NCBI GenBank assembly: GCA_035764545.1
Contig: DASTYZ010000037.1
Location: 119 to 64,118, forward strand
DNA from: Solirubrobacterales bacterium
Lineage (GTDB): Bacteria; Actinomycetota; Thermoleophilia; Solirubrobacterales; 70-9
Length of the DNA stretch: 64,000 bases
Reading direction: 5' to 3'
In this document: positions 4,853 to 40,254 of the stretch, piece after piece
Numbering within the stretch: the stretch's first letter is position 1
Layout: each line of letters begins with the position of its first letter
The notes under the pieces: model-generated
What the model saw: the letters and a program-made list of their open reading frames with translations, nothing else
Told to the model about the DNA's origin: nothing
Databases searched by the model: none
Made by a program: the position numbers and the translations under genes

Positions 4853-6100
4853 CTACTTGATCGCCTCGAACTCCCCCGTTTCCGGGTCGACCGCGGGGAA
4901 GGAGCCGGTCTCCAACTCCTGCTCGACCGCGGCATTGACCTCGCCCAGCTCGGGCTCGGGCGCCCCGGTGGTGCGGCGCAGGGTGACCAGTTGGCGGAGG
5001 CGGGTCTGGCGCAGCTTCAGGATCTCAAGCACCTCGACCAGGTAGACGCTGGCGGCGAGGGCGAGGACGCCGAAGAAGGCGATTACCGCGGTCCAGAGCG
5101 GGTCGAAGTTGCCGTGGTCGTCGCTGTAGGGGACGAAGCGCAGAGCCAGCGCCAGCAGCGCCATCACCGCGGTCCAGCCGTAGAGGTAGAGCAGCGTGCG
5201 GCGCTGGGAGAAGCCGATGTCGGCCATCCGGTGGTGGAAGTGCCAGCGGTCGGCTTTGTAGATCGGTTTCCCGTATTTGAGCCGCTTGGCGACGACGAAG
5301 CCGGTATCGAGGATCGGCACCGCGAGGATGATCAGCGGCAGAAAGAGGGCGATAACCGCGTTCGTCTTCAGCGCCCCCTGCACCGCCACCGCCCCGAGCA
5401 AGTAGCCGAGCAGGTTCGAGCCGGTGTCCCCCATGAAGGTGCTGGCGGGCGGGAAGCCCCAGCGCAGGTAGCCGAGCGCGGCGCCGGCGGTCAGCGCGGC
5501 GAGGACGCCGGCGGCGGTGCGGTCGAGCGAGAGCGCGATCGTCGCCAGGGTGATGCCGGAGATGACGGCGACGCCGGCGGCGAGGCCGTCGACGCCGTCG
5601 ATCAGGTTGATGACGTTGATCACGGCGACGAAGGCGAGCACGGTGGCGACGTCACCGAGGTGGACGACGCCGCCGCCCGGCAGGGTGAGGAGGTCAACCG
5701 TCCCCGGCGTGAGGCGGCCGAAGAAGGGAAAGGTGAAGTTGTCGACGGTGACGCCGACGGAGACCGGGATGACGACGGCAACGACCTGGCCGAGCAGCTT
5801 TGGGGCCGCTGGGAGGTCGAAGATGTCGTCGAGGACGCCGATCCAGGCGATCGCCACGGCGCCGATCAGGATTGCGTGGCTTTCGGTGTCGTTCGGCAGG
5901 AAGAGCAGCCCGGCGACGGCGACGCCGCCGAGGATGCCGAGACCGCCGAGCTTCGGCGTCGGGGCGAGGTGGAGCTTGCGCTCGCTCGGGTAGTCGATCG
6001 CCCCCACCCGTAGCGCCAGCCACTTCGTCAGCGGCACCAGCAGCAGGGCGAGGACGCCGGCGACCAGGAAGGCGAGGAGGGCGTCGGTGTCAGTGGGCAT
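4853..6100 (-). CDS. polyprenyl-phosphate N-acetylhexosamine-1-phosphate transferase (MraY/WecA family, GT4)
   Basis: 415 aa polytopic protein with motifs NLIDGVDGLA and FMGDTGSN. It sits directly upstream of the atp operon, as rfe/wecA does in mycobacteria. Confidence 0.85.
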   Translation of the reverse strand: MPTDTDALLAFLVAGVLALLLVPLTKWLALRVGAIDYPSERKLHLAPTPKLGGLGILGGVAVAGLLFLPNDTESHAILIGAVAIAWIGVLDDIFDLPAAPKLLGQVVAVVIPVSVGVTVDNFTFPFFGRLTPGTVDLLTLPGGGVVHLGDVATVLAFVAVINVINLIDGVDGLAAGVAVISGITLATIALSLDRTAAGVLAALTAGAALGYLRWGFPPASTFMGDTGSNLLGYLLGAVAVQGALKTNAVIALFLPLIILAVPILDTGFVVAKRLKYGKPIYKADRWHFHHRMADIGFSQRRTLLYLYGWTAVMALLALALRFVPYSDDHGNFDPLWTAVIAFFGVLALAASVYLVEVLEILKLRQTRLRQLVTLRRTTGAPEPELGEVNAAVEQELETGSFPAVDPETGEFEAIK

Positions 6101-7946
6101 AGCGGTCGAACCAGAGGGTAAGCGCCATCAGGCCCCAGATCTGGCGGCTGAGGTCCTCCTGCCCGGAGCAGTGGCGGTCGAGGATCGGGGTGACGGCAGT
6201 GGGATCGAGCAGACCCTGCCGCTCGACCGCCCCCGCTGAGAGCACCTCGCGGGCGAACGGCTCCAGCGGCCCCCGCAGCCAGGCGGCGATCGGGATCGAG
6301 AAGCCCTGCTTGCGGCCATGGGTGATCTCCCGCGGCAGCAGCGGGTCCAAGGCCTTGCGCAGCAGCCGCTTCTTGGCGAAGCCCCGCACTTTCATCCGCC
6401 GCGGCAGCGAGAAGGCGAACTCGGCGACCTTGGGGTCGAGGAAGGGAACGCGCGTCTCCAGCGAGTGGGCCATGCTCGCCCGGTCGGTCTTGACCAGGAG
6501 GTCGTCGACGAGGTAGATGCCGAGGTCGACGTCCTGCATCCGCGCCAGCGGGTCGGCGCCCGCGGTCTCGGCGTAGCGCTCGCGGTAGACGTCAACGGGG
6601 TCCCAACCGGAGGCGCCGGCCAGCTCTGCCCGCTGCCCGGCGGAGAAGATCTCCTTCCAGGCGTGGTGGCGCTCCAGCGGAGGCAGGGCCGCGGCGCGGG
6701 CGAAGCGCTTGGCTTTGTAGTCGAAGCCGACGCGGTCGGTGCGGCTCGGCAGCGCCTCGGCGAGCGGCCGGGCAAGCGGGGCGAGGCGACCGACGCGGCG
6801 GGCGAGGAGGTCGGCGACGTAGGTGTAGTAGCCGCCGAAGAGCTCGTCGCCGCCCTCGCCGGAGAGGGCGACCTTGACGTGGCCGGCGGCGAGCTCGGAG
6901 ACGAGGTGGGTCGGCAGCGCCGAGGAGTCGCCGAAGGGCTCGTCGAAGGCCTCGACCAGCTTCGGCAGCAGCTCGACGGCGTCGGGGCGGACGATCAGCT
7001 CGTGGTGGTCGGTGCCGTAGCGCTCGGCGACGAGGCGGGCGCGGGAGAGCTCGTTGAAGCCGGCCTCCTCGAAGCCGATCGAGAAGGTGCGTACGGGCTC
7101 ACCAGCATGCTCGCTGGCGAGGGCGGCGAGGCCGCCGGAGTCGACGCCGCCGGAGAGGAGGACGCCGACCGGGACGTCGGCGACGAGGTGGGCGCGGACG
7201 CTGTCGTCGAGGACTTCGCGCAGCTCCGCCGCAAGCTCCTCTTCGGACCCTCCGCGCTCTCCGTCGGAGACGGCCCCGGGGCGCGCGTACTGCCGCAGCT
7301 CCACCTCTCCCCCCTCCCAGACGAGCAGGTGCCCCGGGGGCAGCTTGCGAGCCTCGGCGAAGATCGTCAGCGGCGCCGGGATCGAGTTGAAGGCGAGGTA
7401 GGCGGAGAGGGCGCGGGGGTCGATCTCCCGTGAGAAGCCGGGCTGCTCGAGCATCGCCTTCAGCTCCGAGGCGAAGGAGAGGCCGCCGTCCTTGACCCGG
7501 TAGTACAGGGGCTTGATCCCGAAGCGGTCGCGCGCCAGCAGCAGCCGCTGCCGCCGCTTGTCCCAGAGGGCGATCGCGAACATCCCCCGCAGCCGCTCGA
7601 CGAAGCGCTCGCCCTCCTCCTCCCAGAGGTGGACGAGGACCTCGGTGTCGCAGTCGGTGGCAAAGCGGTGGCCCTTGCCCTCGAGCTCGCGCTTGAGCTC
7701 GCGGTAGTTGTAGATCTCACCGTTCTGGACGACGACCGCGCTGCCGTCCTCGTTTTCGATTGGCTGATGGCCGTGGGCGAGGTCGATGATCGAGAGTCGC
7801 CGTGCCGCCAGCGCCGCCGGCCCCTCGCAGAACATTCCCTCGTCGTCGGGGCCGCGGTGAACGAGCCGCCCGCTCATCCGCGCCACTGCCTCGCGGTCGG
7901 GCCCGCGCTCTCGCTCAGCGGCGACGACGCCGCAGATACCGCACAT
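6090..7946 (-). CDS. asnB: asparagine synthetase (glutamine-hydrolysing) family amidotransferase
   Basis: 618 aa with N-terminal MCGI (Cys2 Ntn nucleophile) and PP-loop SGGVDS. Confidence 0.9.
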   Translation of the reverse strand: MCGICGVVAAERERGPDREAVARMSGRLVHRGPDDEGMFCEGPAALAARRLSIIDLAHGHQPIENEDGSAVVVQNGEIYNYRELKRELEGKGHRFATDCDTEVLVHLWEEEGERFVERLRGMFAIALWDKRRQRLLLARDRFGIKPLYYRVKDGGLSFASELKAMLEQPGFSREIDPRALSAYLAFNSIPAPLTIFAEARKLPPGHLLVWEGGEVELRQYARPGAVSDGERGGSEEELAAELREVLDDSVRAHLVADVPVGVLLSGGVDSGGLAALASEHAGEPVRTFSIGFEEAGFNELSRARLVAERYGTDHHELIVRPDAVELLPKLVEAFDEPFGDSSALPTHLVSELAAGHVKVALSGEGGDELFGGYYTYVADLLARRVGRLAPLARPLAEALPSRTDRVGFDYKAKRFARAAALPPLERHHAWKEIFSAGQRAELAGASGWDPVDVYRERYAETAGADPLARMQDVDLGIYLVDDLLVKTDRASMAHSLETRVPFLDPKVAEFAFSLPRRMKVRGFAKKRLLRKALDPLLPREITHGRKQGFSIPIAAWLRGPLEPFAREVLSAGAVERQGLLDPTAVTPILDRHCSGQEDLSRQIWGLMALTLWFDRYAH

Positions 7947-8017: not shown

Positions 8018-8148
8018 GGCGCTGGGAGGGTCGAGGTACCCGTCTACCTTCGCTGGGTTATTCGCCAGAAGCGGCCGGCGCCGTCCGAGTTTAGCGGTGG
8101 TGCGAATAGCTAACGCCGCTCGTACGACGGGTACCTCGACCCTCACCC
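8018..8148. repeat. structured hairpin repeat, copy 1 (left inverted repeat of the cassette)
   Basis: Outer stem GGGAGGGTCGAGGTACCCGTC (8024-8044) pairs with GACGGGTACCTCGACCCTC (8126-8144). Inner stem is TATTCGC/GCGAATA. Conserved blocks CTACCTTCGCTGGG and GCTAACGCCGCTCGTACG are shared with copy 2 in inverted orientation. Confidence 0.75.
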
Positions 8149-8222
8149 GATGCAAAATTGCTTACGTCCCATCAGCGTAGGACTCGCTGGGCCCACTCGA
8201 TCCTTGACAAAAAGAGAAGCGG

Positions 8223-9542
8223 TCAGTCAGCAAAGCCTTTGGTCCGGCGAAGCTCCTTTTCAGCACGGCGCAGGCTTGCGGGCAATATTTGCACCATCTC
8301 CCAGCGGTAGTCGTGCTCCTCATCAGGAAAATCGACTTTCAGCGCGTCGGCAAGGTCAGTCAACCTCGGCTGTGCTGCGAGGTCGGACCGCATCTCTCGC
8401 ATGACGGCAGAAGTGGCTTCTTTTGCCCTAACCGCGTCTGCTGCCGAATAGCTCTGCCCTTCGTGTACGGCTCCATTTCGCATCCGATAGGTCGTTGACC
8501 ACCAGGTGCCCCAAACCGATCCCTGGTCGTCCACCCTGATTTTCCTATTCAGCACTTTCGCGAGATGAACCGTCACGCACTCTTTGAGCCAGGCAGCAGA
8601 TGCCGCCTCGCGCTCCTCCGCCGACCAACCCAAGCGTTCGGCTCCCTCGCGGACGGTCGTGCTGACAAGCCCCTCAACGGCCATTCCGAGGGTGATGATG
8701 CAGCGGGTTGCCTCTCCCAACAGCGAGTACGCCCAAGCATCCTCTACGAAGCTAAAGAACTGCAGATATGGCTCGGCACCCTTATTCGCAGCGCTAACCA
8801 TGGCGCTCGCTTGCCAAGCAAAATCCGGGGGAGGTTCATCTTCAACCGCGACATCAAGAAGCTCGGGGCGGATTGACACGACGCAGTGAATCGGCCATTG
8901 ACCGGGCTCCTCTCCGGGCGATACGTGGTCGATGATGATCGGCAGGAGCGGTGGTAGTTGGCCTGCTGAGAGTCGACCGATTCGCCAGTCCCGCGAGGTC
9001 ATACTCAGCGCGGTCAGAAAGCGGTTCAGGTCCGCGAGGCAAACGAAGAACTGAGATCGAAGCCAGTCCAGCTCTTCCTCTCGGCCGGTCTCGTCTGGAA
9101 TTTCGGACGGCGGAATGAAGGACGAGAGGGAAACCACTGAGCGCGTCAGCATTACCCCTCGTCGATCAGCACTCCGTAGACCCCGCCGTCTGGTCAGTCG
9201 CTCACGCCAGTTCAGAAATGGCAGGACTTTGTCGCCAAACGCCTCATCTGCGGCTCGAAGCGGGGGAATGGACTTGACTCTGGCTCGCCGAAATCGGATC
9301 TGAGTTCCCGGCATCAAGTTTTCGGGAATTTCTTTGGCGCCGGGCCATTCCAGGAGCGTCCAAAGATCCTCTCCCGCCCAACCCTCCCACGCGGGTGATC
9401 GCTCCAGAAGTGGGGCCATCTGCCAGTTATTGGGAACCGGAAGGGCGAAGGGAAGCTCAAGGATGTAAGTGATGACCCTCGCTTGAAGGCGTGCGTCCCC
9501 CACACACCTGATGCTGCCGAAGCCGCCGGATGAGTCGAGCAA
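8223..9542 (-). CDS. orphan hypothetical protein with C-terminal HEPN-like RNxxxH motif (candidate RNase or abortive-infection protein)
   Basis: 439-aa ORF, the only long ORF in the lower-GC interval. The motif YRMRNGAVHEG at 8463-8486 fits the HEPN pattern Rx4-6H with Asn after Arg. The start codon is uncertain (TTG at 9542). Confidence 0.55.
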   Translation of the reverse strand: MLDSSGGFGSIRCVGDARLQARVITYILELPFALPVPNNWQMAPLLERSPAWEGWAGEDLWTLLEWPGAKEIPENLMPGTQIRFRRARVKSIPPLRAADEAFGDKVLPFLNWRERLTRRRGLRSADRRGVMLTRSVVSLSSFIPPSEIPDETGREEELDWLRSQFFVCLADLNRFLTALSMTSRDWRIGRLSAGQLPPLLPIIIDHVSPGEEPGQWPIHCVVSIRPELLDVAVEDEPPPDFAWQASAMVSAANKGAEPYLQFFSFVEDAWAYSLLGEATRCIITLGMAVEGLVSTTVREGAERLGWSAEEREAASAAWLKECVTVHLAKVLNRKIRVDDQGSVWGTWWSTTYRMRNGAVHEGQSYSAADAVRAKEATSAVMREMRSDLAAQPRLTDLADALKVDFPDEEHDYRWEMVQILPASLRRAEKELRRTKGFAD

Positions 9543-9682
9543 CCCCTGCGTTGGTCCTCTGATCCGTCACAAATTCGCATGGCACCCGATTCGCTCGCCA
9601 TCACTGGCATGTTTCCCTCAGGGCCGCGCGCCAGTTCGACTGTAGCTGTCGGGGTCAGGCGAAGCTACAGTTCGGATCGCCC

Positions 9683-9807
9683 GGGAAGGGGGGCACCCTC
9701 CGTACGAGCGGCGTTAGCTTTTCGCACCTGCCGGAACTAGGACAGCTGTAGCCGTCTCTGGGCGAAAGCCCAGCGAAGGTAGGTGGTGCCCCCCTTCCCC
9801 CAGCGCC
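9683..9807. repeat. structured hairpin repeat, copy 2 (right inverted repeat of the cassette)
   Basis: Outer stem is GGGAAGGGGGGCACC ... GGTGCCCCCCTTCCC and inner stem GCGAAA/TTTCGC. The reverse complement aligns block for block with copy 1 (GGCGCTGGG, CTACCTTCGCTGGG, GTGCGAAnAGCTAACGCCGCTCGTACG). Confidence 0.75.
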
Positions 9808-9887
9808 AAAGGGCTCGGAACCCGCACCGCTTCCGACATTCGCCCCACCAGGGTGTGCTCAATCTCGGAAGCGTTGAGGGCTGGACT

Positions 9888-10553
9888 TCAGGAGGTCGGC
9901 TGCCCCCGGCCCATCACCTTGGCAACCGTCGCCAGCAGGACTTGGACGTAAAGCTGGACCGAGCGGTCGGCGATGTACTCCATGTCGTGGGCGAGCTTGT
10001 CGGCCCAGGTCTCCTCGCGGGTGATCCGGGTCTGGGCGAAGCCGGTGACGCCGGGGCGGACGACGAGGCGCTGCCAGTACTGGGGGATCTCGCGGCAGAG
10101 CTCGGCGTAGAAGGTCGGCCTGATCGGGCGCGGGCCGACGATCGACATGTCGCCGCGCAGCACGTTCCAGAGCTGCGGCACCTCGTCGAGGTGGGTTTTG
10201 CGCAGGGCGCCGCCGATCCGGGTCCGCTCCTGCTCGGTCCGCCGGGTCAGCTCCTCGCCGTAATAGGGGCCGAGCCGGGTTTCCGCGTCGGGCTTCAGGG
10301 TGCGGAACTTGTACATCCAGAAGAGGTGGCCGGCCTTGCCGACACGGGCGCCGCGGTAGAGGACCGGCCGCCCGGAGTCGAGGGAGATGACGAGGGCGAT
10401 CAGCGCCAGCAGCGGCGAGAGGACGAGCAGGATCGAGGCGGAGATGAGGATGTCGAGCGCCCGCAGGACGGGGTCGATCGGACGCGGGTCGCCATCCGCC
10501 GCGGGCGCGACGAGTTCTTCGAGGCCGGCCTCGGCCTCGGGCAGCTCGCTCAA
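9888..10553 (-). CDS. undecaprenyl-phosphate sugar phosphotransferase (bacterial sugar transferase family)
   Basis: 221 aa with one N-terminal TM segment and motifs GPRPIRP and [10 protein letters not shown], typical of WbaP/PglC-type initiating transferases. Confidence 0.85.
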
Positions 10554-11599
10554 GAAGGCGTTACGGGATGAGGCTCTTCGCGCAATGGTTGGGCTCCGAC
10601 GGTACCGAGGATGGTCTCGACCAGGAAGGCGGGATCGCGGCGTGTCGGCGTCGCCTCGGCGGTCCGCTTCTCCAGCACGAGCGCGCGGGGGTCGGTCAGC
10701 GGGCGCAGGCGACCGGAGCGGATCAAGGCTTCGTCGACGCCGCCGAGGCGGCCGCCGTAGGTGGTGTAGACCGGCGTCGCCAGGGCGGCGGCCTCGCGGT
10801 TCATCGTGCCGCCGGCGGAGAGGACGAGGTCGGCGAGCGCGACCAGGCTCTGCGCCTCGACCGCGCCCGGGGGGACGATCACCGAAGGCAGACCGAGGCC
10901 GGTGATGAACTCGCGCTGCGCCTGCGTGCGCGGCAGGACGACGGCATGGACGCCCTCGTCGCGGCCGAGGCGGTCGAGCACCTTGGGGAACAGCGGGTTC
11001 GACTTGCGGTGGTAGAGAGAGACGTCGGGTGGCGGCCGAACGATGACGACGACGCGCTCGGTCTCGACCCCGAGCTTCGTCAGCGCCTCAGGATCCGGCT
11101 CGAAATCGAAGAGGTAGTACTCCTCCTTCAGGCCCGGATAAGGGAAGAACTTGGCCTCGGTGACGCCGAAGCGGCGCAGGCGGTCGAGCGGCACCGAGTC
11201 CGGGAACATCACCCGCCGCGAGAGGCGGCAGCCGATCCGGTGCTGGGTGACCGCGTACTCGTAGTCATGCATGTTGGCCTCGGGGACGCCGAGCGTCTTC
11301 GCCGCGATCGCGAGGTCGTTAGAGCCGTGGGCGAGCGCCAAGTCGAAGCCGCGGCCGCGGCCGAAGCGCAGCATGCCGCTGCTGCGGCCGGCGAGAGCCG
11401 CGGCCTTGCGCAGCCGCGAGGCGCCGCCGTGGCGGCCGATCGGGGTGTGATCGAGGCCGTGGAGCTCGAGCAGCTGCTGGGTCTGCGCGTAGTCGCGGGA
11501 GGTGATCTCCACCTTGTGCCCTTCGCCCCGCAGCCGCTCGATGATCGGCCGCAGCACGAGGACGTGCGCCGGAGCGCTCATGTCCACCCAGACCTTCAA
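10550..11599 (-). CDS. DUF354-family protein (glycosyltransferase-like)
   Basis: 349 aa. The N-terminus MKVWVDMSAPAHVLVLRPIIERLRGEGHKVEITSRDY matches my recollection of the DUF354 pattern. Overlaps the downstream sugar transferase start by 4 nt. Confidence 0.6.
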   Translation of the reverse strand: MKVWVDMSAPAHVLVLRPIIERLRGEGHKVEITSRDYAQTQQLLELHGLDHTPIGRHGGASRLRKAAALAGRSSGMLRFGRGRGFDLALAHGSNDLAIAAKTLGVPEANMHDYEYAVTQHRIGCRLSRRVMFPDSVPLDRLRRFGVTEAKFFPYPGLKEEYYLFDFEPDPEALTKLGVETERVVVIVRPPPDVSLYHRKSNPLFPKVLDRLGRDEGVHAVVLPRTQAQREFITGLGLPSVIVPPGAVEAQSLVALADLVLSAGGTMNREAAALATPVYTTYGGRLGGVDEALIRSGRLRPLTDPRALVLEKRTAEATPTRRDPAFLVETILGTVGAQPLREEPHPVTPS

Positions 11600-40052: not shown

Positions 40053-40179
40053 GCGGTAGGGAGGGACGGGTGTCCCCTGGCCTTCCTGGGTTCCTCGCCG
40101 GGCGCGTGGCATCTCTCTGTGAGTGGTCAGTGCGAGGAACAGGACGCCGGTCGGCCAGGGGACACCCGTCCCTCCTTGC
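40053..40179. repeat. structured hairpin repeat, copy 3 (diverged), between convergent genes
   Basis: Perfect 23-bp outer stem GGAGGGACGGGTGTCCCCTGGCC (40060-40082 with 40153-40175) and 9-bp inner stem GTTCCTCGC/GCGAGGAAC. Shares the blocks GGGAGGG, CCTTCnCTGGGTT, GTGCGA and ACGCCGnTCG with copies 1 and 2. Confidence 0.55.
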
Positions 40180-40206
40180 GACAGTCCCGAAGATTCGGAT
40201 TTCATC

Positions 40207-40249
40207 GAGTCCGCGAAAAAGCTCGTATAGCGACGCTTTTCGCGGACTC
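40207..40249 (-). terminator. hairpin downstream of the cyclase gene
   Basis: GAGTCCGCGAAAAAGC-loop-GCTTTTCGCGGACTC forms a 15-bp stem with a one-base bulge, starting 6 nt after the cyclase stop. Confidence 0.45.
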
Positions 40250-40254
40250 GGTGA

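Follow-up and report, generated by a model that had tools for sequence, protein, structure and literature searches.

A gene for a two-domain protein of the HEPN type lies on the minus strand of a 64,000-nt stretch of contig DASTYZ010000037.1 from a Solirubrobacterales bacterium (assembly GCA_035764545.1), hereafter the window. The gene stands between a Bac_transf sugar-transferase gene (9888-10553) and asnB (6090-7946), within a housekeeping stretch that holds SHMT, DUF354, a MraY/WecA-like gene and ATP synthase genes, and a hairpin element of about 125 nt flanks it on both sides as two copies in inverted orientation (Table 1). Bacterial immunity makes repeated use of HEPN nucleases as effectors (Cas13, Csm6, ApeA, DARNA and PrrC/RloC), and their infection sensing depends on non-catalytic domains, only a few of which are understood. 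The original prediction had read this 439-residue open reading frame (ORF), with an RNxxxH motif towards its C-terminus, as an orphan and a candidate HEPN-type defence ribonuclease; both the ORF and the motif are present. The comparisons below suggest that the protein represents a family new to the HEPN superfamily, one whose N-terminal domain is unrecognised.

Table 1. Position of the gene, its predicted domains and the flanking hairpin elements in the window
Feature	Position	Strand	Basis
Gene for the two-domain HEPN-family protein	8223-9542	minus	ORF list; 439 residues from TTG at 9542
N-terminal alpha/beta domain, residues about 16-256	8775-9497	minus	AlphaFold2 model, pLDDT mostly above 90
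Predicted C-terminal HEPN domain, residues about 257-405	8328-8774	minus	AlphaFold2 model, profile and Foldseek matches
Predicted Rx4H catalytic motif R355-N356-G-A-V-H360	8463-8480	minus	Conservation, helix position, alignment to the Ec2ApeA motif
E290, conserved acidic residue of HEPN helix 2	8673-8675	minus	78 E and 3 D among 81 sequences of the diverse alignment
Hairpin element A, on the sugar-transferase side of the HEPN gene	9677-9804	minus	Covariance model, 106.7 bits
Hairpin element B, on the asnB side of the HEPN gene, convergent with A	8021-8150	plus	Covariance model, 121.7 bits
Segment between hairpins A and B	8151-9676		blastn and sequence comparisons

Predicted domains and conserved residues

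The protein contains the peptide TTYRMRNGAVHEGQSY, and the codons of R355 to H360 fall within positions 8463-8486, to which the motif had been assigned. The GTG at 9503, which would give a product of 426 residues, is more likely to be the start codon than the TTG at 9542, because most homologues begin 13 codons downstream of this TTG and because, within the 13-codon 5' stretch, the window differs from its closest orthologue by two changes, both non-synonymous.

Structure prediction with AlphaFold2 from a shallow alignment gave a poor model (predicted local distance difference test score, pLDDT, 57), which was not used; a diverse alignment gave a pLDDT of 90.9 and a predicted template-modelling score of 0.84. 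In this second model the N-terminal domain combines strands at residues 21-29, 81-91, 130-143, 199-207 and 218-223 with long helices at 112-128 and 154-183. The C-terminal domain is all-helical, with helices at 260-274 and 278-303, inserts at 308-316 and 319-331, and two further helices at 343-361 and 367-389. The RNxxxH motif is placed at the end of helix 343-361, which is helix 3, and is followed by a loop (362-366) and the last long helix, while E290 falls within helix 278-303. The census of the HEPN superfamily uses as criteria a motif placed where helix 3 ends and a second conserved acidic residue in helix 2 (PMC3710099), and the modelled positions of the motif and of E290 match these.

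The description of the protein as an orphan holds for its annotation, which lacks any match in Pfam, NCBIfam or PADLOC, but not for its relatives. A word-index search retrieved 26 homologues at 59-96% identity, all unnamed or "hypothetical", the named ones coming from Solirubrobacterales metagenome-assembled genomes (MAGs). An exhaustive HMMER search of 1.84 billion representatives identified 158 clusters (50% identity) at an expectation value (E) of 1e-3 or below and 101 at 1e-10 or below. Most of the 158 align over both halves of the protein at 22-35% identity, and none has a recorded Pfam domain. A word-index profile search with the diverse alignment added one further protein only, and the close family was recovered in 4 of 185,579 species-representative genomes by a pattern-limited scan.

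By itself, the RNxxxH motif is weak evidence and not beyond chance, because its strict form, in which a polar residue follows the arginine (R[NDH]x3-5H), arises in 12% of 5000 residue shuffles of the window protein; the looser Rx4-6H arises in 78%. Conservation within the close family is also little informative, given that mean column identity there is already 71%; in that alignment R355 and N356 never vary and H360 hardly does. The diverse alignment comprises 81 family members with a mean column identity of 23%, and only nine of its columns are conserved at 90% or more, namely F102, N173, A269, E290, W347, Y352, R355, N356 and H360. The nearly invariant F102 and N173 both lie within the N-terminal domain. 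Around RNGAVH the family shares the signature W-x4-Y-x2-R-N-x2-V-H-x-G (R355 in 79/81, N356 in 73/81, H360 in 75/81 and G362 in 72/81), and E290 is exchanged only for aspartate, with the exact spacing Ex3[KR] not seen around it. Furthermore, R[NDH]xx[h]H is retained in 144 of the 174 retrieved proteins, those without it being mostly fragments, and in five of five members fused to TPR domains. In one close homologue, P0022 (proteins are given here by P numbers and contigs by L numbers), a 10-residue deletion at about columns 359-368 of alignment A1 takes out the catalytic histidine, and this protein may be an inactivated copy.

Consensus sequences were emitted from hidden Markov models of the two domains and searched against profile libraries. 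The consensus of the C-terminal domain matched the Pfam HEPN family PF05168 over profile positions 11-116 of 117 with 24.1 bits (E 4.3e-5), above the curated cut-off of 22. It also matched PADLOC model PDLC01031 (Csx1/Csm6) in its HEPN half (E 2.5e-8) and phrog_37158 (E 2.2e-6), with weak matches to DUF4145, Hypoth_Ymh and RiboL-PSP in Pfam and weak similarity to TIGR02710 in NCBIfam. Seven real members match the PADLOC Csx1/Csm6 model unaided, with a best E of 7.9e-6, and individual members give scattered sub-threshold matches to six different HEPN-clan families of Pfam. A profile search of the PDB returned a sub-significant match to Ec2ApeA (E 0.4), confined to a 34-residue motif region, where the catalytic motifs are aligned (YklRNrvVHeGyrP with YRTRNLIVHTGKTP). 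Among Foldseek matches in the PDB, the geometrically sensible ones were all minimal HEPN proteins (E>0.1), namely 2q00 (probability 0.97, template-modelling (TM) score over the target 0.60), 2hsb (0.90 and 0.59), 1wol and 1ufb (TM about 0.6) and AbiV 9bj7; a fold search of BFVD found nothing. The HEPN call of the original prediction is thus borne out by arginine and histidine residues conserved among distant homologues and by profile and structure comparisons that recover HEPN. On these grounds it is predicted with high confidence that the C-terminal 150 or so residues form a HEPN domain whose active site is intact and whose nearest type is Csm6/Csx1.

The N-terminal part had been declared unrecognisable and it still is, since not even its consensus has a match in Pfam, PADLOC, PHROGs or NCBIfam. 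Foldseek gave no confident match for this domain, and the low-probability matches to RAMP/Cas5, phage baseplate and chemokine-binding proteins were judged meaningless.

The gene and the hairpins at the sugar-transferase/asnB locus

A 96%-identical protein is encoded at the same site in MAG JBJMKN01 (L003/L012). Between the window and this orthologue the ratio of non-synonymous to synonymous substitution rates (dN/dS) is 0.08, and the HEPN gene is under purifying selection. Its dS of 0.24 equals that of the flanking genes (0.18-0.29), and the gene was therefore already in the common ancestor of the window and L003. The DNA that the two share comprises positions 8218-9564, that is the ORF with about 25 nt on each side, plus the flanking genes only, and downstream of the gene their sequences are unrelated. 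Within the 140 nt that precede the HEPN gene, between its start and hairpin A, the window has a perfect 9-bp inverted repeat, ACTGTAGCT ... AGCTACAGT, with a spacer of about 17 nt (9605-9655, minus strand); it is not in L003 and could be an operator or a small terminator. A scan for sigma-70 promoters and terminators gave no signal above background, and a tRNA scan found none.

The composition of the gene is foreign, as had been claimed, and the anomaly is strong: its GC content is 0.595 and its GC content at third codon positions (GC3) 0.64, against a GC3 of 0.91-0.95 in five neighbouring genes. Members of the family sit at unrelated loci, and the window gene appears from these comparisons to have been horizontally acquired.

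The HEPN gene shows presence/absence polymorphism, because the orthologous flanks occur without it in metagenome contigs, and the intergenic slot that it occupies differs in content from relative to relative. Five such contigs (L034, L022, L037, L038 and L021) have the same flanking genes, at 76-90% identity to the window, and lack the HEPN gene. In L034 (8150-8240) and L022 (about 1150-1240) the two hairpins are separated by a spacer of about 95 nt only, and L037 has one hairpin at the site. L038 has one hairpin and a small hydrophobic ORF (about 50 residues, reverse strand; 7070-7250), and in L021 (1590-2400) about 820 nt between the hairpins hold an FmdB-like zinc-ribbon ORF (MPIYEFRCPACG...) together with a hydrophobic ORF of the L038 type. 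This slot may be a recombination or insertion hot spot.

These data bear on the view that the protein acts outside conflict, either as a housekeeping or regulatory protein that binds or processes RNA or as a non-catalytic HEPN protein. The complete catalytic signature is conserved, the family is extremely patchy in distribution and variable in location, codon usage is foreign and the gene is missing at orthologous loci of close relatives, all of which make such a role quite unlikely, even though the window and L003 copies have genes for the cell envelope and for amino-acid biosynthesis on either side, in one relative there is an overlap with a methyltransferase gene downstream of another Bac_transf gene and some HEPN domains are non-catalytic (PMC3710099).

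Each hairpin has a perfect closing stem of its own, 15-19 bp or longer, whose sequence differs between the copies, around a conserved interior (CTACCTTCGCTGGGCTATTCGCC ... GCGAATAGCTAACGCCGCTCGTACG). When 47 hairpin copies were aligned, double-sided compensatory changes were seen at 16 of the 30 predicted pairs. A 22-nt core of the hairpin occurs in 38 soil-metagenome contigs (L016-L053) representing at least 11 distinct loci, and the covariance model shows convergent pairs 200-300 nt apart to be the usual arrangement. Rfam gave no match, either at E of 1 or below around the gene or at the gathering threshold over the whole window. The element may be a REP-like repeat (repetitive extragenic palindrome), a terminator or insulator, or a small RNA.

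The repeat-bounded context invoked by the original prediction is real in so far as two inverted hairpins flank the gene, but they are resident intergenic structures and not the ends of a unit that carries it, because the same pair occurs at the orthologous gene-less sites of relatives (L034 and L022), L003 has the gene and neither hairpin, and the two do not overlap elsewhere: a family member is found at none of the 31 other hairpin loci, and a hairpin at none of the other family loci. It is very improbable, and largely refuted already, that the gene is the cargo of a mobile element that ends in the two hairpins and is moved by them. The bracketing by inverted repeats, the recurrence of the pair at 11 or more loci and the different cargo held between the pair in L021 would fit such an element; what speaks against it, in addition to the distribution just described, is covariation of the stems from copy to copy, which transposon ends do not show.

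The window holds a further hairpin copy, the third, in diverged form at 40055-40181 on the plus strand (57 bits with model R1), directly after the stop codon of a gene. The sequence of its inner helix differs and is compensated (GTTCCTCGC/GCGAGGAAC), and another perfect hairpin, of 15 bp (GAGTCCGCGAAAAGC...), comes after it at about 40200-40250.

Neighbourhoods of the family

Thirteen independent loci of the family were examined (Table 2). Defence or mobile-element genes occur within 8 kb at 8 of the 13, an association that was counted by eye and is supportive rather than statistical.

Table 2. Neighbourhoods of the HEPN-family genes at 13 independent loci
Locus	Source	Neighbouring genes
1	Window and L003	Housekeeping genes
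2	L001	Adjacent 624-residue TPR protein (6042-7916); S8 peptidase, AAA_16 gene and kinase nearby
3	L002	Type IV secretion genes, GmrSD_N, deaminase
4	L004-L007	XamI restriction enzyme, Eco57I-type methylase, HNH, DDE transposase, Gp49/HTH (HigBA-like) pair
5	L008	TIR_2, TrwC relaxase, kinase
6	L009	DUF4238; adjacent 637-residue TPR protein (9245-11158)
7	L010	Unknown ORFs only
8	L011	TPR-fused member; HNH gene nearby
9	L014	AAA_21/AAA_15 ATPase matching AriA/PtuA models (E 3e-26)
10	L015	PIN, IS21-like genes, "cll" defence component
11	L054/L055	1064-residue TPR fusion; CAP12-PCTIR TIR, Mrr-helicase, IS110 and Mu transposases, integrase fragment
12	L056	Bac_transf, methyltransferase
13	L058 (6200-9429)	Insertion of family gene, TPR and Ser/Thr kinase inside a flagellar operon

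Some family members are accompanied by a TPR protein. The TPR neighbours in L001 and L009 are 51% identical over their full length and their HEPN partners only 33%. Because the TPR proteins are more alike than the HEPN proteins beside them, the sequences indicate that a HEPN gene with an adjacent TPR gene forms a conserved optional two-gene module. In addition, C-terminal TPR fusions are found in P0109, P0140-P0142 and P0149. A tblastn search found the TPR partner absent from the 64-kb window. The TPR protein of L058 was rejected as a homologue of the L001/L009 partner, there being no blastp match. Kinase genes lie within about 4 kb of the family gene in L001 and L008.

Some of these surroundings would suit a selfish toxin or addiction module, in which the HEPN RNase, with its own N-terminal domain or an unlinked factor as antitoxin, stabilises the carrier DNA or mobile element. 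HEPN toxins are common in toxin-antitoxin systems (PMC3710099), family members occur on conjugative or transposon-rich DNA, and PIN and HigBA modules are found near some family loci. A partner of the minimal nucleotidyltransferase (MNT) or small-antitoxin type was nevertheless rejected, since no neighbour is conserved and no NTP_transf-type gene is adjacent at any of the 13 loci. The window copy, moreover, has been inherited vertically at a housekeeping locus, with dS equal to that of its flanks, where addiction is not needed. A toxin of this kind is therefore considered unlikely.

The loci also bear on whether the protein could be an accessory effector activated by a second messenger in the manner of Csm6/Csx1, its N-terminal domain binding a cyclic oligonucleotide made by an unlinked type III CRISPR system, by a cyclic-oligonucleotide-based antiphage signalling system (CBASS) or by something similar. 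The resemblance of the HEPN domain, whose best profile similarity is to the Csx1/Csm6 and CARF_HEPN models and weakly to TIGR02710, is set against three observations: the consensus of the N-terminal domain matches no CARF or other sensor model, so that a CARF identity was rejected; its long strands and long helices in the AlphaFold2 model are not Rossmann-like; and cas, cyclase and CBASS genes are present in none of the 13 neighbourhoods. An effector of this type is very unlikely.

Proposed function and known HEPN systems

From its sequence, the window gene fairly probably encodes a stand-alone two-domain HEPN ribonuclease of an undescribed family and is an accessory gene for conflict or defence that was gained horizontally and has been retained by selection. 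The accessory status of the gene and the defence and mobile neighbours at 8/13 loci make a defence role plausible and somewhat favoured. In this proposal, two subunits would pair through their HEPN domains, as in other HEPN nucleases, to create a composite, metal-independent RNase site. This site could cut cellular or invader RNA (tRNA anticodon loops, or mRNA and rRNA) and leave 2',3'-cyclic phosphate ends. The tightly packed, family-specific alpha/beta domain would hold the nuclease off until an infection cue is sensed, with the TPR module doing or sharing the sensing in some relatives, and activation would lead to growth arrest or abortive infection.

Several points weigh against this proposal. 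The window protein itself has no matches in scans of Pfam, PADLOC, NCBIfam and PDB sequences, no real member sequence is significant against any Pfam HEPN model, and the Pfam HEPN support depends on an artificial consensus sequence. A whole-chain Foldseek search of the PDB gave no match at E of 1e-3 or below. The window copy lies amid housekeeping genes with no defence or mobile gene nearby, the neighbourhood count was made without a background rate, and no viral or prophage copy was found when viral contigs were searched with the close-family alignment. Finally, the sensor role of the N-terminal domain is pure inference.

A bolder and rather improbable version of the proposal can also be formulated. 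The family might be a new class of single-protein immune sensor-effector, in which a novel trigger-binding N-terminal fold gates a Csm6-like HEPN RNase and TPR is an optional extra sensor, and the hairpin pair might mark an undescribed gene-capture hot spot of Solirubrobacterales that exchanges small cassettes (empty, membrane peptide, zinc-ribbon ORF or HEPN gene).

The family is of interest as a compact architecture from poorly studied soil Actinobacteria, with an unknown alpha/beta domain of about 240 residues joined to a Csm6-like HEPN domain, and Pfam, NCBIfam, PADLOC and the PDB do not contain it. Its natural solo, TPR-adjacent and TPR-fused forms allow comparison. If it is a true defence gene, it would extend the libraries of defence finders and offer a new sensor fold; if not, the analysis would still annotate about 160 clusters of "hypothetical proteins" as probable HEPN RNases. 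The hairpin-bounded variable slot is an unexpected by-product that is worth separate attention.

Among known systems, the best fold matches are the minimal HEPN/HepT toxins of HEPN-MNT modules (PF05168; 2q00, 2hsb, 1wol and 1ufb), whose Pfam family is also the one passed by the consensus. HepT-type proteins are single-domain, of about 120-130 residues, and are paired with a nucleotidyltransferase antitoxin, whereas in the present family HEPN is fused to the 240-residue domain and no MNT gene is adjacent. The LA2681-like HEPN proteins (PF18733) are fused to TPR and occur in operons with TPR (PMC3710099). This TPR association is common to both groups, but PF18733 is touched by 1 of the 81 members at E 0.02 and is unmatched by the consensus. 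At the profile level the closest HEPN domains are those of the CARF-HEPN proteins Csm6/Csx1 of type III CRISPR systems, which share the logic of an N-terminal regulatory part and a C-terminal HEPN domain; they differ in their CARF domain, which is not detectable in the family, and in their link to cas genes, which the 13 neighbourhoods lack.

The original prediction had compared the protein with ApeA (PF18739; Ec2ApeA, PDB 9hxb), which likewise is encoded by a single gene and has a large non-catalytic N-terminal part and a C-terminal HEPN domain, with an almost identical catalytic signature (YRTRNLIVHTG in ApeA, YklRNrvVHeG in the family). Cleavage of the tRNA anticodon by ApeA is activated through a pocket to which the non-catalytic part contributes (bioRxiv 10.64898/2026.01.26.701840). 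An ApeA-like architecture can nevertheless not be upheld. PF18739 is matched by 1 of the 81 members at E 0.088, with no significant ApeA sequence match, and ApeA is a protein of about 590 residues that is almost wholly alpha-helical, with a catenin-like N domain, a PafA-like Mid domain and a split HEPN domain with insertions. The family protein has about 425 residues and, in the AlphaFold2 model, an alpha/beta N-terminal domain in place of the all-helical N and Mid domains.

DARNA is a single-protein HEPN tRNase that is switched on by single-stranded DNA bound to single-stranded-DNA-binding protein and acts abortively (bioRxiv 10.64898/2026.02.22.705581). It resembles the family in combining a Csm6-like HEPN domain and a non-catalytic sensing domain in one polypeptide, and differs in its reversed order, with HEPN at the N-terminus, and in the all-helical, Pds5-like fold of its sensing domain. 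ApeA and DARNA thus provide a precedent for single-protein HEPN tRNases that are activated through non-catalytic domains. By analogy, the present family would work like ApeA, DARNA and Csm6, with a regulatory domain and a HEPN RNase in one polypeptide, but it appears to belong to none of them.

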